This document shows positions 40,185-56,812 of a stretch of DNA of 58,700 nt, piece by piece (positions within the stretch are counted from its first letter, which is position 1; every line of letters starts with the position of its first letter). Below the pieces are notes generated by a model. It was not told the origin of the DNA, did not search any database, and saw only the letters and a program-made list of their open reading frames with translations. This DNA comes from Bacteroidales bacterium (GTDB lineage Bacteria; Bacteroidota; Bacteroidia; Bacteroidales; UBA7960): assembly GCA_019429055.1 (NCBI GenBank), contig JAHYJP010000002.1, positions 1 to 58,700 of the forward strand, written 5' to 3'. Made by a program: the position numbers and the translations under genes.

Positions 40185-40391
40185 TTATTTTCCGATCATT
40201 ACTTCGGTAGATTTAACAATGGCAAAAACTTCGTCGCCAACCTTCAGATTCATATCCTCCACACTATCAATGGTTATCATTGAGCTTATGATGGTTCCAT
40301 CGGCAATTTTTACGGCTACTTTTGCCATTACGCTACCAATTTTTACTTCTGTAATGGTTCCCCTGATCTTGTTTCGTGCACTTAATTCCAT
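40185..40391 (-). CDS. Molybdenum-binding Mop/TOBE domain protein (molbindin)
   Basis: MELSARNKIRGTI..V..G.V.A.V, ITIDSVEDMNLKVGDEV.AIVKSTEV; 68 aa. Confidence 0.92.
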   Translation of the reverse strand: MELSARNKIRGTITEVKIGSVMAKVAVKIADGTIISSMITIDSVEDMNLKVGDEVFAIVKSTEVMIGK

Positions 40392-40494
40392 GATTTTCTT
40401 GTTTTGATTCAAAATGATTAATGAAACTTTATTCAGAAATTAAACAACTCTGATACACGAAAGTTCTTAGCCGGGCTTGTTTAGGCTCATAAAA

Positions 40495-41586
40495 TCAGGG
40501 GATCTCCCTGAAAAAGTACATTTCCATAACCGATTTTACAGAACGATCGGCGTAAAATTCTGAAGGGTGAAAAATACGGTAAAATCCCCCGTCTTCAGGA
40601 TTGTCAGGAACAGCAAATATTGGAAAAACCTGATCGGTTCTGTTAAACAATTCGCTGTAGCTGTATATGGCTCTGTAGCCGTCAACCGATGCAAAACAAA
40701 CCAGTCCGTGACGGTTCCAATCAGGATCAAAGGGTTTGAAATCTTCATGCATAACCTTGAGTAATGCCGGCCCTTGGAAATACCGGGCTTCATGATATCC
40801 CATACCCATGCCATAAAAACTGGAATGATAGCGGGTGTAATTTTGCTTTTTTTCATCAGGTAGGATAGTCTGGACATATTCTTCGTCCATCAGAACGGTA
40901 ACTTCAGGGCTATACATGGGCTCATAATCTCTGTCAATAACGTAATCTTTTTTATCGAAAGAATGAACTGTTATTTTTACCGGATTTTCCAGAACCCTGT
41001 ATGCAAAAAGATCATTGGCTGAAACAACTTTCCAGTTTTCACCTATTTCATAATCAACTTCCCTGCGGTAAGGCACAATAGGTGCAGCTTCTGTAGCAAT
41101 GAGTATCTGGTGCGGATTATTGGTGTGAAATATTTCTGACCAGCTAAAAGAAACTGTTTCGCCTTTGTCATTTTCAATTATTACATAAAGATCAATGGCA
41201 GGCCTGAAAATATCCATATTCTTTTTATCCTGGTTAAACGGGTGCAGCAAATCAAACAAAGAATAACCACGATAACGGTAAGCGCCCAAAAAATGGATTC
41301 CGGTTTCCTCATCAAAAAGTGATTCTTTAATCATCACCTCTCTCTTGTAATGGTTGCCTAAATTTACTTTTCCTGGTTTTTTAATCTCTCCGGCAACTTC
41401 AAGTTCTCCGGTATTCATACTTACTTCATCGGTTTGGTGAAAAAGACTGTTGCCATCCTGGGCCATAGGTTTGGAGGCACCACTCAATGCATCTGCAAGG
41501 GTTTCGGGTAGTAAATCGCAGCCCCAAAGAGAAAAACCAATAATAATAACAACAAAAAAACGGGCAATGGAATAGTGTTTTAGCAT
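40495..41586 (-). CDS. Lipoprotein with two tandem molybdopterin-oxidoreductase-like (sulfite oxidase fold-like) domains
   Basis: Start MLKHYS, lipobox LWGC. Repeated pattern YRGYSLFDLL...IENDKGETVSFSWSEIF / FQGPALLKVM...ASVDGYRAIYSYSELF, ending R...P....DRSVK.V. Confidence 0.6.
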   Translation of the reverse strand: MLKHYSIARFFVVIIIGFSLWGCDLLPETLADALSGASKPMAQDGNSLFHQTDEVSMNTGELEVAGEIKKPGKVNLGNHYKREVMIKESLFDEETGIHFLGAYRYRGYSLFDLLHPFNQDKKNMDIFRPAIDLYVIIENDKGETVSFSWSEIFHTNNPHQILIATEAAPIVPYRREVDYEIGENWKVVSANDLFAYRVLENPVKITVHSFDKKDYVIDRDYEPMYSPEVTVLMDEEYVQTILPDEKKQNYTRYHSSFYGMGMGYHEARYFQGPALLKVMHEDFKPFDPDWNRHGLVCFASVDGYRAIYSYSELFNRTDQVFPIFAVPDNPEDGGFYRIFHPSEFYADRSVKSVMEMYFFREIP

Positions 41587-41603
41587 ACTTAAAAAGTTAA
41601 ATC

Positions 41604-41626
41604 CGAAATGTAAAAATTGCATAACG
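41604..41626. promoter_or_regulatory. Putative ModE box 1
   Basis: CGAAATGTA-AAAAT-TGCATAACG, 17 bp upstream of the lipoprotein ATG. Confidence 0.6.
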
Positions 41627-41821
41627 CAAAAGTGCAAATATTTTTCTTCATATTTAACCAGGTATTAATAATTTGAAATGATTATAAATTAATTAAGATG
41701 ATATTCTTTAAAGTATTGTTTTGCAAGTTATTGCGAATTTGGTTCAATGGATAAATAATCCGACTTTTCAAAGTTTCAGAAATTTGTACTAATATTGCGG
41801 CCAAATCAGAATGGTGTAGCT

Positions 41822-42193
41822 ATGATTAAGCCCGAAAAATTAAAACTGAACTATAAGTTCTGGATTGAAACAGAGTCTGGTTTAAGTGTATTGGGCGAAG
41901 GAAAATGGAAATTACTTAAAGCCATTCGTGATACCGGTTCTTTGAAGGCTGCCGTTGAAAAAATGGGGTACACCTATCGTCAGACCTGGCAAAATCTTAA
42001 GAATATTGAAGATAAGCTGGGCTTTAAACTTATTGAAAAAAGCAGGGGAGGCGAAAAGGGTGGCGAAACCGTTCTTACAGCTAAAGGAGAACTTATAGTT
42101 GCTTTCTTTGATAAGCTTTACACCGATGTTGAACCGGGGATAAAAAAATCATTTGAAAGGATGGTTGAAGATTTAAATAAAATTGTTGATTGA
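41822..42193 (+). CDS. modE: ModE-family winged-helix regulator (N-terminal domain only)
   Basis: K.WIE.....VLGEGKWKLLKAI..TGSL..A...MGYTYR..W..L, SRGG.KGG.T.LT; no TOBE domains. Confidence 0.85.
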   Translation: MIKPEKLKLNYKFWIETESGLSVLGEGKWKLLKAIRDTGSLKAAVEKMGYTYRQTWQNLKNIEDKLGFKLIEKSRGGEKGGETVLTAKGELIVAFFDKLYTDVEPGIKKSFERMVEDLNKIVD

Positions 42194-42208
42194 TATTTTT
42201 TTGTTTAC

Positions 42209-42281
42209 CGATATGCAGATTCTGCATAACGAAAATTAAATCCTGTTTTTTTATAAACCGTTATGCAAATATTGCATAATC
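42209..42281. promoter_or_regulatory. Putative ModE boxes 2 and 3
   Basis: CGATATGCA-GATTC-TGCATAACG (42209-42231) and CGTTATGCA-AATAT-TGCATAATC (42259-42281), upstream of the TonB receptor ATG at 42299. Confidence 0.7.
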
Positions 42282-42298
42282 AAAAACTTTTAAAATCT

Positions 42299-44602
42299 AT
42301 GCATAAAATTTTACTGATTATTTGCTTACTGCTTGGAAGTAATTTCCTGTTTGGCCAGCAAACCATCACCGGCAAGGTTGTTTCATCTGAAACCAATGAG
42401 CCGGTATCTGGTGCCGTTGTTAAAGTAAAAGGCACTCAAACAGGAACCACGAGTGCTGTTGATGGTAGCTTTTCTCTTCGTATAGAAGAAAGGGAAAGTA
42501 CCATTCTCGAGATCAGTTTTATTGGATATGAAACCAGGGAAATTAACACAGAAGCGGGTGAAAGACCACTCTCCATTGTCCTTACCCGTGATATAAGGCA
42601 ACTGGGAACTGTAATTGTTACCGCAACGCGTAACCGGCAGAGCAGGTATGATGTACCAGTAGGGGTGGATGTTCTGGAAAAAGAAAAAGTTGAAGCCATT
42701 CCGGCATTGTCAGCAGATGATTATTTGCGTGCCATTTCCGGTATTTCTGTGAGCCGTGGAGCTTCATTTCTGGGATCAGCAACTGTTTCCATGCGGGGGA
42801 TGGGAAGTGAAGCAGGTCGAACCCTTGTAATGATTGATGGTGTGCCGGTAAATAAAACCGATGGCGGGTCGGTAAACTGGAATGCTATCAATGCAGAAAA
42901 TATTGAGCAGATTGAAGTAATGAAAGGCCCCGGATCCAGCATACACGGGGGTAATGCTATGGGTGGGGTAATTAACCTGATTTCACCCACTCCTTCACAA
43001 AATATTGAAGGTTCTTTAAGCCAGAGCTATGGTACATTTGAAACAGCCAACACCCATGCAAATATCGGGGGTCGTAATAACAATCTTTTCTGGGGAATTA
43101 ATGGCCGGTACCGTATGAGTGACGGATATATAACAACACCTGCAGATGAGATAGACGAATTTTCAGTAGCTTCTTTTCTTGAAGAATACCAGGCAGGAGG
43201 AAGGGCCGGTTATTTTTTGAATCCCGATCAGATGCTGGAAGCATCCCTGTCTTATTACCTGGGGCAAAGAGGTACCGGGGCCAGATTTACCGGTTATGGA
43301 TTTGAAAATGATGCCCTGTCTGCTCCCGATGGTGCTTACAATGAATATACGGCGTTAAACGGAAGGCTTTTATACAGGGGCTCATTCCATAATAACAGTC
43401 AGTTAAACATTACCCTTTACGGACAAAGGGAAAATTACCAGAATATTCGTGAAAGTGTGAGAAACGAAATAATTAGTCGTTACGATGTGGAATCGATTCG
43501 TGATGATCTGGGTTTTCTTTCCTCATTTACTTTTCACCCGTTGGCTTCACACAATATAACCACAGGTATAGACCTGCGTCATGGAGCGGTCGATGGTGCC
43601 GATATTTACCTTACTACCACCGATAAAGTTTTTAATCTTGGTAAAATGAACCAGCTGGGAATTTATCTGCAGGATGAAGTAAGGATAGCCCAGTCACCAT
43701 GGAGTGTATTGGCAGGTATACGGTTTGATTATGCCGGTTTTTATGATGGTGCTTTCCTGGTAGAAAATCCCACCAACGAAACAGCATTCTTGCAGGCATA
43801 TACGGGTGACCTGGGTGATGCCAACTTCACCGCATTCAGTCCCAGGTTATCTTTCCAGTATTATATACCCCAAAGTTTCAGGATTTATGCCGGATATAGC
43901 CGCGGTTTCCGTGCTCCTGTGCTTGACGATATGTGTAGAACAGGCCGCATTTCAGGTGGTATGAAGCTGGCCAACCCTGATCTGCAGCCCGAATACCTGG
44001 ATAATTTTGAATTGGGAGGAAATATCTTCCTTGGCAGCCGCATTACGATATCACCCGCAGTCTTCTATGCACTAGGTAAGGATTACCATGCTTACATTGC
44101 AACCGGGGATTCTTTAATCCTTAACAACAGGATGCGACCCATCCGCATAAAAGATAACATTGGCAAAGTAGAAATACTGGGTGCAGAATTGGCCGCACAG
44201 ATTAATATCATGCAAGGTTTCGAGTGGAATTTTTCTTACAGCTATACTGATACAAAAATTGCTGAATACCGAATTTTCGATCCCGGTGAGGATGATAACC
44301 TGGTGGGGAAGCAACTGGTTTATCAGCCTCGTGATATGTTTTATACTGCGTTAACCTGGCAAAATCCCATAGTAAATACCCTGGTTTCTTTCAATTACAA
44401 GGGCGCACAATGGCTCAACGATGTAAATACCGAAGAAATTGAAGCTTTCACATACATCGACCTGCATCTTTGGAGACCTGTGTACCGTGGGTTGTCATTA
44501 GCACTAAAAGTACACAACCTGCTCGACCAGGATTTTGTTGACTCACGCAATATGATTGCCCCGGGCAGAATGATCAATGCTGAATTAAAGTACTCCTTTT
44601 AA
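42299..44602 (+). CDS. TonB-dependent outer membrane receptor (BtuB/CirA-like) with N-terminal carboxypeptidase-regulatory-like domain
   Basis: Signal peptide; ITGKV.....EP..GA.V; VIVTATR; plug motif IEQIEVMKGPGSSIHGGNAMGGVINLI; GFRAP, NPDL.PE, C-terminal PGR....LKYSF. Confidence 0.93.
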   Translation: MHKILLIICLLLGSNFLFGQQTITGKVVSSETNEPVSGAVVKVKGTQTGTTSAVDGSFSLRIEERESTILEISFIGYETREINTEAGERPLSIVLTRDIRQLGTVIVTATRNRQSRYDVPVGVDVLEKEKVEAIPALSADDYLRAISGISVSRGASFLGSATVSMRGMGSEAGRTLVMIDGVPVNKTDGGSVNWNAINAENIEQIEVMKGPGSSIHGGNAMGGVINLISPTPSQNIEGSLSQSYGTFETANTHANIGGRNNNLFWGINGRYRMSDGYITTPADEIDEFSVASFLEEYQAGGRAGYFLNPDQMLEASLSYYLGQRGTGARFTGYGFENDALSAPDGAYNEYTALNGRLLYRGSFHNNSQLNITLYGQRENYQNIRESVRNEIISRYDVESIRDDLGFLSSFTFHPLASHNITTGIDLRHGAVDGADIYLTTTDKVFNLGKMNQLGIYLQDEVRIAQSPWSVLAGIRFDYAGFYDGAFLVENPTNETAFLQAYTGDLGDANFTAFSPRLSFQYYIPQSFRIYAGYSRGFRAPVLDDMCRTGRISGGMKLANPDLQPEYLDNFELGGNIFLGSRITISPAVFYALGKDYHAYIATGDSLILNNRMRPIRIKDNIGKVEILGAELAAQINIMQGFEWNFSYSYTDTKIAEYRIFDPGEDDNLVGKQLVYQPRDMFYTALTWQNPIVNTLVSFNYKGAQWLNDVNTEEIEAFTYIDLHLWRPVYRGLSLALKVHNLLDQDFVDSRNMIAPGRMINAELKYSF

Positions 44603-44657
44603 TACCGTCGTCGTAAATCTCTGAACCGTGCAAAATTTCAATTATTAGCGACGATTC

Positions 44658-44691
44658 AAAGACCGGGTGCTCATACAGGCCCGGTCTTTTT
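44658..44691 (+). terminator. Intrinsic terminator after the TonB receptor
   Basis: AAAGACCGGG...CCCGGTCTTTTT. Confidence 0.75.
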
Positions 44692-44756
44692 CTGTTTTTG
44701 CCATCAGATTGAACTGAGAATATTTTTTTTACTTATATCTTTGAAAGAAAAAAATT

Positions 44757-45713
44757 ATGAGGATCCGAATCATTTCCTTATTGGTAATTTTTATTACTGT
44801 AATTCTAACCGCCTGTAATTTAGGTGGAAAGCGGGATGACTCCCATACCATCCATATCATCCACGCCGGTAGTCTTACCTTGCCGGTTCATGAACTATCC
44901 CGGGCTTTCAGGGAAGAAAACCCTGATGTAAGGATTCTTACCGAAGCCTGGGGCAGTAAAGCGGGTGCCCGCAGGGTAATTGATATCAACACACCGGCCG
45001 ATTTGTTTATGTCGGCCGATTATATGGTAATTGAAAATATGCTGATTCCCGATCATGCAAGCTGGTACCTGCCTTTCGCCACAAACGAGCTTTCTATTGT
45101 ATATACCGAGCGTTCGCGTTACGCAAGTGAAATTAACCGGGATAACTGGATGGATATACTAATGCGGAATGATGTGAAGTATGGCCGCAGCAATCCTGAC
45201 ATGGACCCATGCGGGGTGCGCAGCGTTTTTACCATTAAGCTGGCAGAAAAGAAATTTAACAAACAAGGTTTTGCACAGCAGCTTCTCGAAAAGGATACAG
45301 ATAATATTCGTCCAAAGGAAACAGACCTTATTGCATTACTTGAGCAAAATCATATCGATTATATCTTTCTTTATAAAAGTGTTGCTGTTCAGCACGGACT
45401 TAAATACCTTGAACTACCCGACAGCCTGGCACTGGGAAATTTTGAACTGAATGACTGGTATCGTAAGGTAAGCATTGAAACCCTGGGTACACGCCCTGGT
45501 GAAACCATTACGGAATATGGCGAAGCCATGGTGTATGGGCTTACCATTCCGCATAAATCGGAAAACCGGGAACTGGCAGCAAGGTTTATAAATTTTGTTA
45601 TGCATCCCGACAAGGGACAAGCCATCCTGAAAAGATTAGGGCAGGAATCGGTGGGTAAATTTGACAATCCTTATAAAGATGATATTCCTGAAGAAATTAT
45701 CAGGCCAGATTAG
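44757..45713 (+). CDS. wtpA: Tungstate/molybdate ABC transporter substrate-binding lipoprotein, WtpA type
   Basis: Lipobox LTAC; IHAGSL..P, EA.GS, D...SADY.VI, FATNE, G.S.P..DPCG.RS, RPKE.DL, DY.F.Y.SVA.QH, YG.TIP. Confidence 0.85.
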   Translation: MRIRIISLLVIFITVILTACNLGGKRDDSHTIHIIHAGSLTLPVHELSRAFREENPDVRILTEAWGSKAGARRVIDINTPADLFMSADYMVIENMLIPDHASWYLPFATNELSIVYTERSRYASEINRDNWMDILMRNDVKYGRSNPDMDPCGVRSVFTIKLAEKKFNKQGFAQQLLEKDTDNIRPKETDLIALLEQNHIDYIFLYKSVAVQHGLKYLELPDSLALGNFELNDWYRKVSIETLGTRPGETITEYGEAMVYGLTIPHKSENRELAARFINFVMHPDKGQAILKRLGQESVGKFDNPYKDDIPEEIIRPD

Positions 45714-46029
45714 TTTTCTTATTAATCAGGAAGACACCGGCAAATTGATTTCGGGGAATGGTTCTTCGGGGATACATGCTGTTTACATCATGCCATGGCT
45801 GAAGCCTTGAACCTCGCGGAATTCTTACATCAAACTCAGGGTCGAGAAGCTTTTCTTCAATGGGACTTACTGTGTTTTTGATTTCAAGGGTATCAGCTGA
45901 AGTATGGGTTTCGGATTTTTCGTTTCCGGAATAGGCAGGCTGGGTCAAAAACAGCATTAAGACCATTGGTACAATAGCAAAAACCATCACTGGAAAAGCA
46001 GATATTTTATGGTAAGTCCTTACTGTCAT
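45700..46029 (-). CDS. Hypothetical secreted protein
   Basis: 109-aa ORF with a signal-like N-terminus (..PAYS); overlaps the wtpA end by 14 bp. Confidence 0.45.
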   Translation of the reverse strand: MTVRTYHKISAFPVMVFAIVPMVLMLFLTQPAYSGNEKSETHTSADTLEIKNTVSPIEEKLLDPEFDVRIPRGSRLQPWHDVNSMYPRRTIPRNQFAGVFLINKKTNLA

Positions 46030-50314: not shown

Positions 50315-53300
50315 ATGAAAACAGATTTTTACTTGTCGGGAAATATCATTAAAATCATCTTAATGATTATTATGTTTTTTCCCCTTGCTTATTTAGAAAA
50401 ACTGCAAGCCCAACCTTCGCAGGGAGCAACCAATTTTTCGGTGTCTAATGTGGAAGGAGATCGTTTCAGGGTAAATTGGGTAAGTGGTACCGGAGAGAGA
50501 CGAATTGTTTTGGCCAGTGATGTGTCAGATTTTTACGGGAGCGGTATACCTGTAGATGGTGTAGATTATAATGCTAATAATTCCTTTGGACAAGGTGATC
50601 AGATTGGTACCGGCAACTTTGTTGTTTACAAAGGCACAGGAGCGAATGTTACTGTTAACAATCTGGACAGCTCCTCCACCTACTATTTCCGTATTTATGA
50701 GTACAATGGCAATGATTTTCAAACCCTTTACAACACTGATGATGTGCTTGAAGGCAACGGTACTACCCTTTCAGCTCCGCTTACAGGGCCTGATAACCTG
50801 ATTGTTTCTGATATTTTTGGAAACAGGGCCAGTATGTCATGGGACAGGGGAGATGGTAATAGAAATCTTGTAATTCTCAGGCAAGGAGCCATTCCCGGTG
50901 AACCGGTATTATATCAAAGCTACAACGGGAGTTCAATTTTTGGTAACGGCTCTGCTGTTGGCGGCGGAAGGGCTATTATTGCCGGGACTCAGAACTCCGT
51001 GAACATTACCAGTCTTCAGCCCAATACGTGGTACTATACACGGATACTGGAATATAACGGAGTAAATTATCCGGTTTATTCCTATGGTACAGCACTGGTA
51101 GATTCTTTTATGACAGCTACAAAACCTACCATTGGAAGTACGAATGCAAGTATCAGCAATGTCCAGGGAAATCGTTTTACTCTTGGATTTACATCCGGTG
51201 ACGGAACAAGGAGATTGATCGTTGTACGACAGGATGAACCCGTAGACTGGATACCAGCAGATGGTCTGGACTATAACGACAATGCAAACTTCGGACAGGG
51301 AGATGACCTGGGCAACAATACCTTTGTTGTCGGGCGGATTACGGGTTCATCAAGAGGCATTACCAATCTGACACCTTCAACGGTTTACCATTATGCAGTA
51401 TTTGAATTTAATGGCACAGACAACAATACATGGTATCTTACTGAGCCCGATCATGTATTAACAGGCCAGGTAGAAACACTTTCAGCCCCAACTGTGCAAG
51501 GTGGCAACTTTGAGTTTTCTGATATTACCGGTAATAGTATGTCTGTTTCTTTTTCCCCGGGCAATGGTAGCGGGAGGATTTTGCTTGTAAGGGCAGGTTC
51601 ACCGGTGGAAGACATCCCCCTTAACCTCGTTAGCTATTCATCCAATTCTAATTTTAATAATGCACCTTCCATAGGAAGTTCAAAGATTGTTTACCGGGGA
51701 AGTGGTACAGGCGTAAATTTGACTGCACTTCAGCCCGATACAGAGTATCATTTTGCCCTTTTTGAATACAATGGAAGTACAGGTCCTGTTTATAATCAAA
51801 ACAATCCCGGGGTAGATTCTGTAAGTACACTCGGAGCTCCCACTGTACCTCCTTCAAATCTGACTTACTCCAACATACAGGGTAACAGAATGACGCTTGG
51901 CTACAACGAAGGTAATGGAATAGGCCGTATTGTAATTGCCCGGCAGGGAGCTCCGGTAAATGCTTTTCCGCAGAACAATGTGAGCTATAACGCGAGTACT
52001 AATTTTGGTATTGGTCATGATCTGGGCAATGGAAATTATGTGATTCAGAATAGCACGAGCGGTTCCACTTCTGTTACCGGTCTTGTTCAGGAAACAACCT
52101 ATCATTTTGCTATTATTGAATATAACGGATCAGGAGAAAACCGCCTTTATATGATACCTGATTCCGCTCTTACAGGTAGCAGAGCTACATTATTTCCGCC
52201 TGAAGTACAGGCCAGTGAACTCAGTTTTACTGATATTACGCCCAACTCCGTAAGAATCAACTGGACCAACGGGAACGGAAACGGACGTATAGTACTCATA
52301 AGGCCAGGACAGCCTGTTACAGATTTGCCCAACGATCTTACATCTTATTCATCAAACAGTAATTATTCAAACTCACCTTCAATCGGATCATCCAGAATTG
52401 TTTACCGTGGCAGTGGAAATACAGTTAATGTTACCAATATTCCACCCGGGGAATATCATGTTGCCATTCTGGAGTATAATGGGAGTACCGGACCGGTTTA
52501 CAGGAGGGTTGATCCACTCACAGGCCAGGTTCTGGTTGGAGGCCCACCGGAAATTCCGGCTTCCAATATCAGTTTTTCCAATATTCAGGGAAATCGTTTT
52601 ACCACAAGTTTTACAACCGGAGATGGAATTTCACGCATGATCATTGCACGGCAGGGCAGTCCGGTTAATGCATGGCCGGTTGATGGTAATTCCTATACTG
52701 CAAATTCTACTTTTGGCAATGGAGCTCACCTGGGTAACGGAAATTATGTAGTTTATTCGGGCACGGGGTTGTCTGCAAGTATTCTGGGCTTACAACCCCA
52801 AACCACTTATCATATTGCCATTGTTGAATTTAATGGTTCAGGAGCTACGTCATTTTATCAAAATCCTGACATTGTAGCTACAGCTAGTCGTTCTACCTTG
52901 TTTCCTCCAATAGTGCCCACCTCCAGTATATTTGCCAATAATGTTACAGGCAACCGCATGCAACTTACCTGGACACGTGGTGACGGAACCGGCCGGATTG
53001 TTATAGGCCGGATGGGTCAGGAAGTGAATCAATATCCCGAAGATCTGTTTTCACCCTCCACCCACTCAAACTTTGGTAACGGTTATCACTTTGGAAATGG
53101 AAATTATGCTTTATATGCGGGAACCGGCGATAATTTTAACCTTACCGGTCTTGAACCCGATACTACCTACCACTTTGCATTTATGGAGTACAATGGTACC
53201 AGCGGTCGGGTGTATTTGCGCGATACCATTGCCCGTGCAGCTTTTAAAACTGCCGAGCGGCCTTTTGTTCCGGCTTCTAATCTGGCTGTCAGTAACAGAA

Positions 53301-56300
53301 ACGGTGACAGGCTTACTGTTAATTTCACAACAGGTAATGGGGCACGAAGACTTATAGTTTTCAAAAAGGATGATTTTGTGGATGCACTCCCTGAAGATTT
53401 TACAACCTATGCCACCGGATTTTTTGGTGAAGGTGCAGAAATAGGTAACGGAAATTATGTTGTGGGTATAGCCACCGGAACCAGTTCGCTTATCAGGGGT
53501 CTGGAGCCTGACACACGTTATGGAGTGGCAGTATTTGAATATGATGGTTCCAATGGCAATGAAAGATACATGGTAAATGAATACCTGACGGGTTTTGTGA
53601 GAACCTCCAGTCCTCCAGATATTCCACCCACCGGTTTAATTATAAGCAGCGTGGGTAATAGCGGAGCCAACCTTAGCTGGACCAACGGATCCGGTGAAAG
53701 AAGAATGGTGATCATGAGGCCATTTCAACCGGTTACCTTTCAACCCGAAACACTTAATAGTCATGGAAGTTCGTCAACGAACTTCAATAGTACTTTTAAT
53801 CATCTGGGTGAAGGCCATCGCCATGTTTACCGTGGTGCAAATGATAATATCACGCTTTCCAATATGGAGCCCGGTGTAACCTATCACATCGCCATTTATG
53901 AATACAATGGTCCAAACCAGCCGGTATACGGGCAGGTGCCTTTAACAGGATTCTTTACCACGCTGCCTGAACAAGGCATTGTAATAGGTGGTTTTGATGC
54001 CATAACTTTCTGCCCGGGTCAGACTTTCGCGGTACCCTATTTTTATGCTGGGAATCTGAATTCAGGCAATGTAATTTCTGTGGAATTGTCAGATCAGAAT
54101 GGGGATTTTACTAACCCAACACTTTTAGGTGCGCAGAATACCACAAACTCACAGGGTTTTGTTTCGGCATCCCTGCCACTGAGTCTGCCACAAGGCTCCG
54201 GATACCGGTTGAGAGCTCTGGCCAGTGATCCTGAAGAAATCAGTCCTGACAATGGTGCTGATCTGACAGTTTCAGATCCGCCGATACCCGAAATTGTTGT
54301 TGAGGGTGAATCAACGGAAAGTTGCGGTGAACCTGTTCTACTCTCTGTTTCTCAACCCGGATATCTTATTCAGTGGTATCGAAATGGTGCAGCTTTACCC
54401 TTTGGTACAGGAAGTACATGGCTGGCTCAAGTTTCAGGAAGTTACCAGGTAGGGATTTATGGCGCTTCTGAAGGATGCGAAACACTCTCTGAAGCTGTTT
54501 TAATAAATATTTCTGAAGCACCTGAGTTTGTATTGCCGCTTGATGATGTGTATTGTATGGATCAGGGAGCAGTATCTCTTGAAAATACCGAGCCACAGGG
54601 GGGTATATTTACCGGACCCGGAATATCCGGTAATTTCTTTGATCCTTCCCTGGCAGGTGTTGGCCAGCATCTGATAAACTATACTTATGTTGATCCTGAA
54701 ACACAGTGTGAGTTCAGTACAACTCAGATTGTACTGGTAGCAGCCTTACCAGTTGTAAATCTTGTTTTACCCTTTGAAACAATAAGCCAATTGGATAACC
54801 CCATTCCGCTGGATATGGGAGAACCTGCCGGCGGAGTTTATTTCCTCGGAAATAGCCAGGAAATCATAACTGCCATAAACCCCTCACAGCTTGAACCCGG
54901 TGAATACTGGTTGTTTTATGAGTTTACTAATGATAATGGCTGTTTGGGTATTGACTCTGCGCAGTTCTTTATTACCGAGCCGGCACAAATGGTGTTTGCA
55001 CCCGAACTCGATGCAGTATGCCAGAACTTCGGACTGTTGGATCTACCCGATGGTGAACCAGAAGGTGGCACCTGGTCCGGTGAATTTGTTATTGACAACA
55101 CATTTGATACAGAAGCAGCCGGAAGTGGCGATTTCTGGTTGAGTTACACAGTAGAACTGCAGGATGGATTCTTCCAGTCTGATTCTGCTCTGCTCACTGT
55201 CCTTCCGCTCACATTTACAGAATTGTCAGTAATACTTTGCGAAGGATCGGTTTATGAGATAGGTGATGAAACTTTTACTGAAAGTGGTTTGTATACCATT
55301 ATTCTGGGAGAAGCAGCCAACGGATGCGATTCAGTGCTTTACCTTGATCTGAATATCGGCCACCCTGATCTGACAATAACACAGGATATTGTTGTTTATC
55401 TCGATGAAAATGGTGAAGTTTCCATTTCACCGGATGATGTTTACAATGGTTCGCTTTCCGGCTGGGATATTGAAAGCATGACACTGAATATCCAGGATTT
55501 CTCCTGTGAAGATATTGGAGAAAATGCTGTTTATCTTACCATTACTGATGAAAATGGTAATCAGGCCTGTGGCAGCGCCCTGGTAACAATTGAAGATAAT
55601 CTTCCCCCGGTAGTTCTTACGCAAAATATTACCGTAGAACTGGATGAAAATGGTGAAGCTTTTATTAATGCTACTGATATTGATAACGGCAGCACCGATA
55701 ATTGCGGTATAGAATCTTTGGAGTTGAATATCACCGGCTTTACTTGTGCAAATGTGGGCGAAAATACAGTAATATTGACCGTTACAGATGTAAATGGCAA
55801 TTCTGCTGAAGCCACAGCCACCGTTACTGTGCAGGATAACCTGCCACCTGTGGTGATCGTTATGGATATTACAGTTGAACTGGATGGAAATGGTGAAGCT
55901 TTAATAACAGCAGAGGATGTGGATAATGGCAGTACCGATAATTGCGGTATTGAATCCATGGAACTGGATATTACCGGTTTCAATTGCGAAAATGTGGGCA
56001 TTAATGAAGTAACCCTGACAGTAACAGATGTTAATGGGAATTCCGGTTTTGCAACGGCGCAGGTAACAGTGGTTGATAACCTTCCACCGGTTGTGATTAC
56101 ACAAAATATTGTGATTCAGCTTGATGAAACGGGAGAAGCCGCCATTTCACCTGCCGATATTGATAATGGTTCCTTTGATAACTGTGGTATTGAATCCATG
56201 GAACTGGATGTGTATCTCTTCACATCAGAGGACGCAGGTGAAAACACTGTTACCCTTAACGTTTTTGATGTAAATGGTAACAGCGCATCTGAAACTGCTG

Positions 56301-56812
56301 TTGTAACAGTGCTGGAATTCATCGCCGACACCTATATTCTTACACTCATTGCCGAACCTGTGGAAGGGGGCACTGTTGATGGTGGCGGACAATATGAAGC
56401 AGAAGAAGAGATAACTCTTTCTGCGGTGGCCTCTGAAGGTTATGTTTTCCTGAGATGGGAAGATGAAGATGGCATCGAATTAAGCACTGAAGCCCAGTTT
56501 GTTTTTACTATGCCTGACAGCGATGTAACGCTCACTGCATTCTTTGATCTTGAAAACACAGTTGGTGATGTTTTTTCATCTCATCTGAAACTGTTCCCAA
56601 ATCCTGCAACTGAACAGGTGAATATACACGCAGGATTTGTGGTAAATGCCTTAAGAGTAACGGATATTACCGGAAAAGCTGTTTATTTCAGTAATTCTGT
56701 TCATTCTGATGAATATCAATTGAATGTTTCCGGGTTTGAACCGGGGATATATCTTGTGTCTCTGCAACACGATAAAGGCGTTGTAACGGTGAGATTAATG
56801 GTTACCAGATAA
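50315..56812 (+). CDS. Giant T9SS-secreted repeat protein (10 FN3-like repeats, Cys-containing Ig-like spacers, 4 HYR-like repeats, InlB B-repeat-like domain, type A CTD)
   Basis: Ten ~118-aa units P....N......GN.....W..G.G..R...L.P...YH....EYNG; four ~78-aa units P.V...NITV.LD..G.A.I...D.DNGS.DNCGIES; C-terminal LFPNPA...PG.Y. Confidence 0.85.
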   Translation: MKTDFYLSGNIIKIILMIIMFFPLAYLEKLQAQPSQGATNFSVSNVEGDRFRVNWVSGTGERRIVLASDVSDFYGSGIPVDGVDYNANNSFGQGDQIGTGNFVVYKGTGANVTVNNLDSSSTYYFRIYEYNGNDFQTLYNTDDVLEGNGTTLSAPLTGPDNLIVSDIFGNRASMSWDRGDGNRNLVILRQGAIPGEPVLYQSYNGSSIFGNGSAVGGGRAIIAGTQNSVNITSLQPNTWYYTRILEYNGVNYPVYSYGTALVDSFMTATKPTIGSTNASISNVQGNRFTLGFTSGDGTRRLIVVRQDEPVDWIPADGLDYNDNANFGQGDDLGNNTFVVGRITGSSRGITNLTPSTVYHYAVFEFNGTDNNTWYLTEPDHVLTGQVETLSAPTVQGGNFEFSDITGNSMSVSFSPGNGSGRILLVRAGSPVEDIPLNLVSYSSNSNFNNAPSIGSSKIVYRGSGTGVNLTALQPDTEYHFALFEYNGSTGPVYNQNNPGVDSVSTLGAPTVPPSNLTYSNIQGNRMTLGYNEGNGIGRIVIARQGAPVNAFPQNNVSYNASTNFGIGHDLGNGNYVIQNSTSGSTSVTGLVQETTYHFAIIEYNGSGENRLYMIPDSALTGSRATLFPPEVQASELSFTDITPNSVRINWTNGNGNGRIVLIRPGQPVTDLPNDLTSYSSNSNYSNSPSIGSSRIVYRGSGNTVNVTNIPPGEYHVAILEYNGSTGPVYRRVDPLTGQVLVGGPPEIPASNISFSNIQGNRFTTSFTTGDGISRMIIARQGSPVNAWPVDGNSYTANSTFGNGAHLGNGNYVVYSGTGLSASILGLQPQTTYHIAIVEFNGSGATSFYQNPDIVATASRSTLFPPIVPTSSIFANNVTGNRMQLTWTRGDGTGRIVIGRMGQEVNQYPEDLFSPSTHSNFGNGYHFGNGNYALYAGTGDNFNLTGLEPDTTYHFAFMEYNGTSGRVYLRDTIARAAFKTAERPFVPASNLAVSNRNGDRLTVNFTTGNGARRLIVFKKDDFVDALPEDFTTYATGFFGEGAEIGNGNYVVGIATGTSSLIRGLEPDTRYGVAVFEYDGSNGNERYMVNEYLTGFVRTSSPPDIPPTGLIISSVGNSGANLSWTNGSGERRMVIMRPFQPVTFQPETLNSHGSSSTNFNSTFNHLGEGHRHVYRGANDNITLSNMEPGVTYHIAIYEYNGPNQPVYGQVPLTGFFTTLPEQGIVIGGFDAITFCPGQTFAVPYFYAGNLNSGNVISVELSDQNGDFTNPTLLGAQNTTNSQGFVSASLPLSLPQGSGYRLRALASDPEEISPDNGADLTVSDPPIPEIVVEGESTESCGEPVLLSVSQPGYLIQWYRNGAALPFGTGSTWLAQVSGSYQVGIYGASEGCETLSEAVLINISEAPEFVLPLDDVYCMDQGAVSLENTEPQGGIFTGPGISGNFFDPSLAGVGQHLINYTYVDPETQCEFSTTQIVLVAALPVVNLVLPFETISQLDNPIPLDMGEPAGGVYFLGNSQEIITAINPSQLEPGEYWLFYEFTNDNGCLGIDSAQFFITEPAQMVFAPELDAVCQNFGLLDLPDGEPEGGTWSGEFVIDNTFDTEAAGSGDFWLSYTVELQDGFFQSDSALLTVLPLTFTELSVILCEGSVYEIGDETFTESGLYTIILGEAANGCDSVLYLDLNIGHPDLTITQDIVVYLDENGEVSISPDDVYNGSLSGWDIESMTLNIQDFSCEDIGENAVYLTITDENGNQACGSALVTIEDNLPPVVLTQNITVELDENGEAFINATDIDNGSTDNCGIESLELNITGFTCANVGENTVILTVTDVNGNSAEATATVTVQDNLPPVVIVMDITVELDGNGEALITAEDVDNGSTDNCGIESMELDITGFNCENVGINEVTLTVTDVNGNSGFATAQVTVVDNLPPVVITQNIVIQLDETGEAAISPADIDNGSFDNCGIESMELDVYLFTSEDAGENTVTLNVFDVNGNSASETAVVTVLEFIADTYILTLIAEPVEGGTVDGGGQYEAEEEITLSAVASEGYVFLRWEDEDGIELSTEAQFVFTMPDSDVTLTAFFDLENTVGDVFSSHLKLFPNPATEQVNIHAGFVVNALRVTDITGKAVYFSNSVHSDEYQLNVSGFEPGIYLVSLQHDKGVVTVRLMVTR

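Follow-up and report, generated by a model that had tools for sequence, protein, structure and literature searches.

The passage of molybdate and tungstate across the outer membrane is assumed to be passive, via porins, and we know of no established outer-membrane route dedicated to either anion. Here we describe a locus in a 58,700-nucleotide stretch of DNA from an uncultured Bacteroidales bacterium (the window; positions 1 to 58,700 of contig JAHYJP010000002.1, assembly GCA_019429055.1), in which positions 40185 to 45713 encode the molbindin Mop, a lipoprotein of an unannotated family, a ModE-like regulator, a TonB-dependent receptor (TBDR), and the tungstate/molybdate-binding protein WtpA. 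On the basis of its gene content, its conserved clustering, and the dyads that precede its genes, we consider it likely that this locus is a molybdenum/tungsten (Mo/W)-responsive acquisition module, in which a TonB-energized outer-membrane route feeds the WtpABC transporter.

Among the described systems, WtpABC (i.e., the archaeal-type ModABC; PF0080 and AF_0094) has counterparts here in the WtpA of the window and in WtpB- and WtpC-like genes found elsewhere in the genome (on C162), but the binder gene lies apart from the permease and ATPase genes and together with a TBDR gene. To our knowledge, neither an outer-membrane component nor an accessory lipoprotein has been described for WtpABC, and we met none in our literature searches. 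The Escherichia coli ModE-ModABC system resembles the locus in the putative N-terminal ModE-type helix-turn-helix (HTH) of the regulator and, given what we take to be the E. coli consensus, in AT-rich dyads over the starts of uptake genes. Mop domains are what makes ModE responsive to metal. In contrast, the regulator in the window stops after the HTH and has no C-terminal di-Mop/TOBE domains, and its homologues in related loci are equally short (59 of 59); in addition, the dyads have a consensus of their own, and the genes that would be regulated include those for a TBDR and lipoproteins.

Uptake pairs consisting of a TBDR and a lipoprotein are well known in Bacteroidota (i.e., BtuB-BtuG, SusC-SusD, and HmuR-HmuY). 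The receptor of the window shares the Bacteroidota-type N-terminal CarboxypepD_reg domain, its gene adjoins lipoprotein genes, and many related loci also encode lipoproteins in which acidic residues follow the lipid-bearing Cys, as well as a protein with a type IX secretion system (T9SS) tail. Unlike these pairs, the lipoprotein of the window has a flavinylation motif and no acidic export signal, its relatives also occur in receptor-less wtpABC operons, and the imported substrate would be inorganic, a species of Mo or W. The predicted fold of both lipoprotein domains is that of the PruR/SUOX family (MsrP/YedY and sulfite dehydrogenases; Z up to 11.8), and the protein appears to be cofactor-less, exported, and of SUOX fold, as PruR appears to be (PMC11194511). 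It differs from this family in lacking a PF00174 match, in its tandem domains, lipid anchor, and flavinylation motif, and in its context of Mo/W uptake rather than c-di-GMP signaling or the redox chemistry of sulfite or methionine sulfoxide. The nearest published parallel that we found comes from Azotobacter vinelandii, for which the available part of the report describes TBDR genes (VnfA1 class B targets) that are on only without Mo and vanadium and that are read as serving metal acquisition (PMC9542535). These are metal-starvation-induced TBDRs, as the receptor of the window would be, but they are proteobacterial, are annotated as siderophore receptors, are controlled by an enhancer-binding protein, and, as far as that part of the report goes, are not accompanied by WtpA or a SUOX-fold lipoprotein; their cargo is also unproven. 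Our literature searches, which covered titles and main-text passages, turned up no account of a TonB-dependent system for the uptake of Mo or W.

Gene content of the locus and genome context

Gene identities were assigned by Pfam and NCBIfam profile searches with curated cut-offs (Table 1). The genes for Mop and the lipoprotein diverge from those for the ModE-like protein, the TBDR, and WtpA. An earlier note, made from the DNA letters only, had proposed this order and these strands together with a palindrome shared by the lipoprotein and receptor genes; our reading of the open reading frames (ORFs) gave the same arrangement, and the palindrome was present in three copies, one before the lipoprotein gene and two before the receptor gene. 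The lipoprotein and receptor ORFs had been listed as opening too early (TTG 41637 and position 42263, respectively); the ATGs at 41586 and 42299 are the likely starts, since translation from them yields normal signal peptides. For the ModE-like gene, the ATG at 41822 is a possible start. Genes on either side are unrelated to the locus (argG, argR, and sucC on one side; a pullulanase gene and an AbgT transporter gene on the other).

Table 1. Features of the putative Mo/W locus and two further ORFs, in window coordinates (aa, amino acids)
Feature	Position	Strand	Description
Mop/molbindin	40185-40391	-	Single TOBE domain, 68 aa from ATG; TIGR00638, PF03459
Lipoprotein	40495-41586	-	363 aa; Sec-type lipoprotein signal, Cys23; two tandem domains of predicted SUOX/PruR fold
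Dyad O1	41605-41625	unstranded	1 mismatch to G[AT]TATG-N9-CATA[AT]C; 19 bp upstream of lipoprotein ATG
ModE-like regulator	41795-42193	+	HTH only; 132 aa from TTG or 123 aa from ATG 41822
Dyad O2	42210-42230	unstranded	Perfect match; upstream of receptor gene
Dyad O3	42260-42280	unstranded	1 mismatch; 50 bp past O2; ends 18 bp before receptor ATG 42299
TBDR	42299-44602	+	767 aa; signal peptide, CarboxypepD_reg-like domain, plug, barrel
Hairpin and U-run	44658-44699	+	11-bp stem; between receptor gene and wtpA
WtpA-type tungstate/molybdate-binding lipoprotein	44757-45713	+	TIGR03730
ORF	45700-46029	-	109 aa; N-terminal hydrophobic segment; 14-base overlap with wtpA end; no Pfam or NCBIfam match
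ORF	50315-56812	+	2165 aa; downstream of AbgT gene

WtpA exceeded the cut-off of TIGR03730 (288.4 bits; cut-off, 242.75), while its score for NF003196 (324.5) was below the cut-off of 355. It matched archaeal WtpA-class proteins whose structures were solved with tungstate or molybdate, namely AF_0094 of Archaeoglobus fulgidus (2onk, 2onr, and 2ons; 1.3e-63) and PF0080 of Pyrococcus furiosus (3cg1; 2.4e-57). The metal ligands, which we take from the A. fulgidus structures to be Asp and Glu carboxylates in octahedral coordination, may be retained: in the alignment with 2onk, one Asp of the conserved NP..DPCG stretch is kept, as is one Glu of the aligned second lobe. Mop scored 75.9 bits for TIGR00638 (cut-off, 55) and 59.8 bits for PF03459 (cut-off, 22.3); its gene follows the lipoprotein gene and has the same orientation, an arrangement also seen in 4 of 80 related loci. 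The regulator reached the PF00126 cut-off (35.4 bits) and scored 69 bits (E 2.9e-19) for TIGR00637, below the cut-off of 98.5.

The receptor contains PF07715 plug (87.5 bits), PF00593 barrel (150.9 bits), and PF13715 CarbopepD_reg_2 (60.8 bits) domains; both plug and barrel exceeded their cut-offs, which places the protein in the TonB-dependent receptor superfamily. It remained under the cut-off of every NCBIfam substrate subfamily (B12, heme, siderophore, and SusC), with scores versus cut-offs of 214.5 versus 316.85 (TIGR01785), 148.8 versus 223.5 (TIGR01783), 144.4 versus 599.7 (TIGR01779), and 135 versus 368.25 (TIGR04056). Solved receptors matched over the plug region only (best E, 1e-20; PqqU, YncD). 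A near-invariant stretch at residues 541 to 560 (approximately positions 43919 to 43978), with a conserved Cys and several Arg, Gly, and Lys residues, is common to 35 receptors of the family. Related receptors are of two kinds, the type of the window (46 to 78% identical) and the type whose genes come after those for surface lipoproteins (31 to 38% identical).

The source assembly (4,177,194 bases in 382 contigs) is 94% complete. By tblastn, the lipoprotein, this type of TBDR, the ModE-like protein, Mop, and WtpA are each encoded by a single copy, and the wtpA gene of the locus is the only gene found in the genome for a WtpA-type binding protein. C162 carries genes for a WtpB-like permease (139 bits for TIGR02141, below cut-off) and for a TOBE-bearing ATPase, and none for a binding protein; thus, the only WtpA-type gene found stands with the receptor and not with the permease. 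The wtpC-wtpB pair (C162:4774-11867) is divergent from genes for a tungsten-type aldehyde ferredoxin oxidoreductase (AOR) and a radical-SAM protein, with a 646-aa regulator-like ORF alongside.

The genome also encodes Mo/W enzymes (three with PF00384 and two AOR-type tungsten enzymes with AFOR_N) and proteins for synthesis of the molybdenum cofactor (Moco), i.e., MoaC, three MoCF_biosynth proteins, and MoeA- and MoaA-like ORFs. Some of these form a cluster on C232 (moeA-moaA-moaC-...-MOSC/moaB), in which the moeA and moaA labels come from the ORFs and from the conserved order in relatives. Given these genes, Moco synthesis looks intact in this organism.

Between the receptor gene and wtpA lies a hairpin followed by a U-run that resembles a terminator or attenuator (minimum free energy, -18.3 kcal/mol; z, -2.78; 1 of 200 shuffles equally stable). 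Its loop was read as 10 nt, and it was missed by a consensus scan limited to loops of 3 to 8 nt. Because of the hairpin, wtpA may not be cotranscribed with the receptor gene and may be on its own transcript, and the sequence just before its start, past the hairpin, resembles by eye what we take to be the Bacteroidota -7 promoter element.

Conserved clustering and dyad distribution

We compared the locus with two sets of loci carrying relatives of the lipoprotein gene. The first set consisted of 20 loci (up to ~9 kb on each side) from a sample of 201 genomes of the order, in which the lipoprotein family was found in 46. The second set consisted of the best 80 of 326 relatives from species-representative genomes; all 80 loci were labeled Bacteroidota except for one metagenome-assembled genome labeled Atribacter, and one came from an isolate (Perlabentimonas gracilis M08_MB; L138). 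Neighbors in the first set were a related receptor (11 loci), WtpA (12), WtpBC (9), a ModE-like gene (11), and AOR (2), with none in 3 loci. In the second set, they were the receptor (52 loci, including 32 of the 42 that span 15 kb or more), a ModE-like gene (42), WtpA (15), WtpBC (6), and Mop (4). About 20 of the 80 loci had no recognized module neighbor, and many of these were short contigs.

The order seen in the window was repeated in seven loci (L088, L090, L103, L116, L119, L122, and L128). Two loci (L164 and L167) carried, on one strand, genes for ModE, WtpA, lipoproteins, the TBDR, the SUOX-fold lipoprotein, WtpB, WtpC, MoeA, MoaA, MoaC, and MoaB, and a third (L166) had the same order without the TBDR gene. 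Strings of wtpA, the lipoprotein gene, wtpB, and wtpC without a receptor gene were found in L059, L063, and L065. Clustering with modE, wtpA or wtpBC, and the lipoprotein gene, on which the proposal in the earlier note depended, is conserved across many genera.

A receptor-first search of the 201 genomes gave 77 TBDR matches (E ≤ 1e-60) in 60 genomes. For 31 of these matches, a lipoprotein gene was no more than 5 kb away, and for 21 no more than 500 bp. WtpA was present in 46 of the 46 genomes with the lipoprotein versus 24 of the 155 others, and in 42 of the 60 genomes with the TBDR versus 28 of the 141 others, all of these being counts that ignore kinship. We also inspected the 20 best-scoring receptor matches with no lipoprotein gene on the contig. 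A ModE-like gene was nearby in six of these loci and moeA-moaA-moaC-moaB stood beside the receptor gene in two, together seven loci; in another five, perfect dyads stood in front of additional lipoprotein genes located ahead of the receptor gene.

Extra lipoprotein genes were also a recurrent feature elsewhere. In many loci (L051, L053, L056, L062, L068, L070, and others, and within L088 to L167), one to three genes for lipoproteins of ~190 or ~300 aa, with acidic residues after the lipid-bearing Cys, precede the receptor gene behind a perfect dyad, and some of these loci add a gene for a 284-aa protein with a T9SS sorting tail. Among the 80 loci, the ~300-aa lipoprotein was found in 25, the ~190-aa lipoprotein in 23, and the T9SS-tailed protein in 7. 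None of these proteins has a Pfam family; they are probably surface capture proteins. By tblastn, the surface-lipoprotein families were not found in the source genome, save for a distant relative of the T9SS-tailed protein on C74. Other recurrent neighbors were a TiaS-TCKD-like protein (248 aa; weak Pfam match, 19.5 bits) and a 192-aa membrane protein (7 of the 80 loci each), an Fe-S assembly protein (6), and an SBF-like permease (5), found in L138, L142, L143, L158, and others.

The dyads themselves were characterized in several steps. The pattern TATGCA-N5-TGCATA gave two matches in the window at up to one mismatch (0.33 expected; 2 of 100 shuffles reached two), and the receptor-side pair represents the sole perfect matches in the genome. 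An enrichment search with exact 5-mer dyads was too strict to be of use. Since the narrow pattern recovered few sites in related loci, it was rejected as a general pattern and replaced with G[AT]TATG-N9/10-CATA[AT]C, which summarizes the palindromes that precede module genes in other loci. At up to one mismatch, O1 to O3 account for 3 of the 13 genomic matches outside long ORFs. O2 is the only one of four perfect genomic matches to lie outside coding frames; the other three (C167, C257, and C359) are inside coding frames and were judged to be chance matches. The only intergenic, clustered sites in the source genome are those of the window.

In the 40 loci of the derivation set (638 kb), there were 50 dyads at up to one mismatch (23 of them perfect), compared with 15.9 on average and at most 27 in 20 shuffles. 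The 80 further loci (1.17 Mb) contained 43 perfect dyads versus 0 to 2 in 10 shuffles, and 92 dyads at up to one mismatch versus 18 to 38. Of the 43 perfect dyads, 41 were located at -40 to 300 bp from module gene starts, and they were spread over 36 of the 80 loci. The genes concerned were TBDR (19), SUOX-fold lipoprotein (14), ModE (9), ~190-aa lipoprotein (5), T9SS-tailed protein (4), WtpA (2), and ~300-aa lipoprotein (1) genes, a tally in which one dyad may count for two divergent genes. A dyad was also found before an AOR gene in L058.

A lipoprotein with a predicted tandem SUOX/PruR fold

The lipoprotein had no Pfam or NCBIfam match (E ≤ 0.01), including PF00174. A homology search found 854 homologues; the best 120 of these were named "hypothetical protein" at most and had no Pfam domain. 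The AlphaFold2 model (pLDDT, 84.9) contains an N-domain (residues ~52 to 216) and a C-domain (~217 to 361). Foldseek matched the model to YedY/MsrP (E, 1.3e-4), sulfite oxidases/dehydrogenases, SoxC, nitrate reductase, and PruR. In a fold search independent of Foldseek, the top 10 matches of the whole protein were all of the SUOX family (Z, 7.0 to 9.1; next, 5.5). The N-domain folded alone (pLDDT, 88.4) gave SUOX-family Z scores of 8.4 to 11.8 (SoxC, 11.8; SorA, 11.5; PruR, 11.0; next unrelated match, 6.2), with root mean square deviations of 2.6 to 2.8 over 116 to 128 residues. The C-terminal half (217 to 361) aligned with PruR and sulfite oxidase, the PruR structure 7rkb having Z scores of 11.0 to the N-domain and 8.3 to the C-domain. 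Furthermore, 22 of 30 matches in an ESM Atlas search fell in PF00174 clusters. As both halves of the model matched SUOX/PruR structures in separate fold searches, the lipoprotein is predicted to consist of two tandem SUOX/PruR-fold domains, in line with the molybdopterin-fold lipoprotein of the earlier note. Sequence support for a duplication was weak (hhalign of the N- and C-domains: E, 0.0036; probability, 9%), and a family profile compared with the sequences of solved structures gave matches at chance level only (E, 0.3).

The N-domain contains no Cys, and the C-domain contains one invariant Cys (C297). The signal peptide ends in a lipobox and, by eye, has no twin-arginine motif. A Moco-loaded enzyme seems unlikely given the Cys-free N-domain and the Sec-type lipobox signal without twin arginines. 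Between the lipid-bearing Cys and the first domain is a low-confidence tether that includes D-A-L-S-G-A-S at residues 32 to 38, and D-x-x-[ST]-G-[AS]-[ST] was found in 116 of the 120 homologues (the exceptions being three with Pro for Ala and one fragment). The core of this motif, [S/T]GA[S/T], is described as an ApbE flavinylation target in the available part of one report (PMC8238504); the main texts of that report and of a second paper on flavinylation contain no mention of molybdenum, tungsten, or sulfite oxidase. The source genome encodes ApbE (C379; 290 bits) at a site unlinked to the locus. ApbE would be expected in the genome anyway, for Rnf/Nqr. The N-terminal tether of the lipoprotein probably carries a covalent flavin mononucleotide (FMN). 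Residues after the lipid-bearing Cys are mostly C-N-L-L-P-D/E and differ from the acidic surface-export signal of the other lipoproteins in related loci; this difference, together with the flavinylation motif, suggests that the lipoprotein is periplasmic. Complex prediction for the receptor (residues 100 to 767) and the lipoprotein (residues 50 to 363), run without controls, scored 0.00 in both runs and is uninformative either way.

Proposed acquisition route and alternatives

These results are consistent with the following route. Under scarcity of tungstate or molybdate, the HTH-only ModE-like regulator, which may sense the metal via the separate Mop protein, would leave the three dyad operators. 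Derepression would lead to expression of the lipoprotein-mop unit and the receptor, and wtpA would be expressed by read-through or from its own promoter. The TBDR would then use the proton-motive force to bring a scarce Mo/W species through the outer membrane, possible cargoes being trace free oxyanion, thiometalates, and chelates. The periplasm-facing lipoprotein, with its two apparently cofactor-less SUOX-fold domains and probable covalent FMN, would receive or convert this species. WtpA would bind the resulting oxyanion and deliver it to WtpBC, encoded elsewhere beside a tungsten-type AOR gene, and Mop would buffer the anion in the cytoplasm. We also considered a more specific role for the lipoprotein, which we find somewhat improbable: a Moco-less tandem-SUOX flavoprotein, with ApbE-attached FMN in the pterin site, might act as a periplasmic metal-release oxidoreductase that yields the oxyanion bound by WtpA. 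In that event, the imported form could be thiotungstate or thiomolybdate, or a chelated or reduced W or Mo form typical of sulfidic sediments.

Several observations weigh against the proposed acquisition module. WtpA was missing from 18 of the 60 genomes with the TBDR, and the 5 of these that were checked (G117, G182, G118, G045, and G070; L069, L074, L075, L076, and L079) were also without ModA over the cut-off; in these five, the receptor gene is beside Moco-synthesis genes in two, and a ModE-like gene is nearby in L076. No Mo/W link was seen in 8 of the 20 receptor-only loci under our Mo/W queries and dyad scan, which are blind to B12 or iron contexts. The regulator lacks metal-sensing Mop domains, and a separate Mop was found in just 4 of the 80 related loci. 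No ApbE or electron-donor gene recurs beside the lipoprotein gene in the related loci. A terminator-like hairpin parts the receptor gene from wtpA. No good dyad precedes wtpBC/AOR on C162 (the best match in the wtpB-AOR spacer has three mismatches), so wtpBC may be controlled differently from wtpA. Finally, some of the loci used for the first dyad counts had also supplied the palindromes behind the pattern, and at least 4 loci of the 80-locus set came from genomes already in the derivation set.

Alternative explanations were weighed against the same data. The receptor might carry another cargo, such as iron for Fe-S clusters or an organic substrate, with ModE matching the supply of that cargo to Mo/W status; ModE of E. 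coli acts on nontransporter genes as well, the receptor comes closest, among NCBIfam families, to heme-type receptors (below cut-off), an Fe-S assembly protein gene recurs among the loci, and some receptor-only loci showed no Mo/W link under our queries. We nevertheless judge this unlikely, because L164 and L167 each have wtpA, the receptor gene, and wtpB in this order within one string, the lipoprotein gene lies inside the receptor-less wtpABC strings, the receptor reaches no siderophore, heme, or B12 family cut-off, and iron and B12 genes are not among the recurrent neighbors. The SUOX fold and the flavinylation motif could instead point to a periplasmic redox or detoxification enzyme, MsrP-like or oxyanion reducing, that protects the envelope or handles toxic analogues, with the receptor being incidental; the loci without a module neighbor (3 of 20 and about 20 of 80, many on short contigs) would fit. 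We give this possibility little credence: the Sec rather than Tat signal and the Cys-free N-domain make a Moco active site seem unlikely, co-occurrence with WtpA is strict, and the 80 loci contain 14 cases of a ModE-type dyad no more than 300 bp upstream of the start of the lipoprotein gene.

The earlier note had itself raised the possibility that the receptor imports Moco, its tungsten counterpart, or a pterin precursor for binding by the pterin-fold lipoprotein, in analogy with the Btu system. Both lipoprotein domains do match the Moco-binding SUOX fold and pterin-binding PruR, and cofactor-dedicated receptor-lipoprotein pairs such as BtuB-BtuG exist in Bacteroidota. Scavenging of this kind is disfavored by the presence of Moco-synthesis genes: the absence of such genes beside Mo/W enzymes, proposed in the note as a sign of scavenging, was not what we found, as the synthesis genes accompany the PF00384 and AFOR_N enzymes in the source genome. 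In addition, the lipoprotein gene is strung together with wtpABC and moeA-moaA-moaC-moaB in three loci (with the TBDR gene in two), all 46 lipoprotein genomes of the sample encode the oxyanion binder WtpA, and no cofactor-type inner-membrane transporter recurs among the loci. We therefore regard cofactor scavenging as very improbable. Accordingly, of the proposal in the earlier note, the link between the receptor and Mo/W acquisition is supported by clustering and dyads, while its cofactor-scavenging variant is not supported.

Anaerobic Bacteroidota rely on tungsten enzymes such as AOR and live in habitats in which free oxyanions can be scarce or thiolated. The lipoprotein represents a large family without annotation, for which the analysis makes a cofactor prediction that can be tested, and the question is open to experiment because one cultured carrier, P. 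gracilis M08_MB, exists. If the metal-release role of the lipoprotein were true, it would be the Mo/W counterpart of periplasmic ferric-siderophore reduction and part of the first energized outer-membrane pathway for these metals. If the proposed acquisition module is real, it would add a new substrate class to TonB-dependent transport, offer a handle on the discrimination of W from Mo and on their mobilization in sediments, digesters, and perhaps guts, and change the picture of passive Mo/W entry for anaerobic Bacteroidota.

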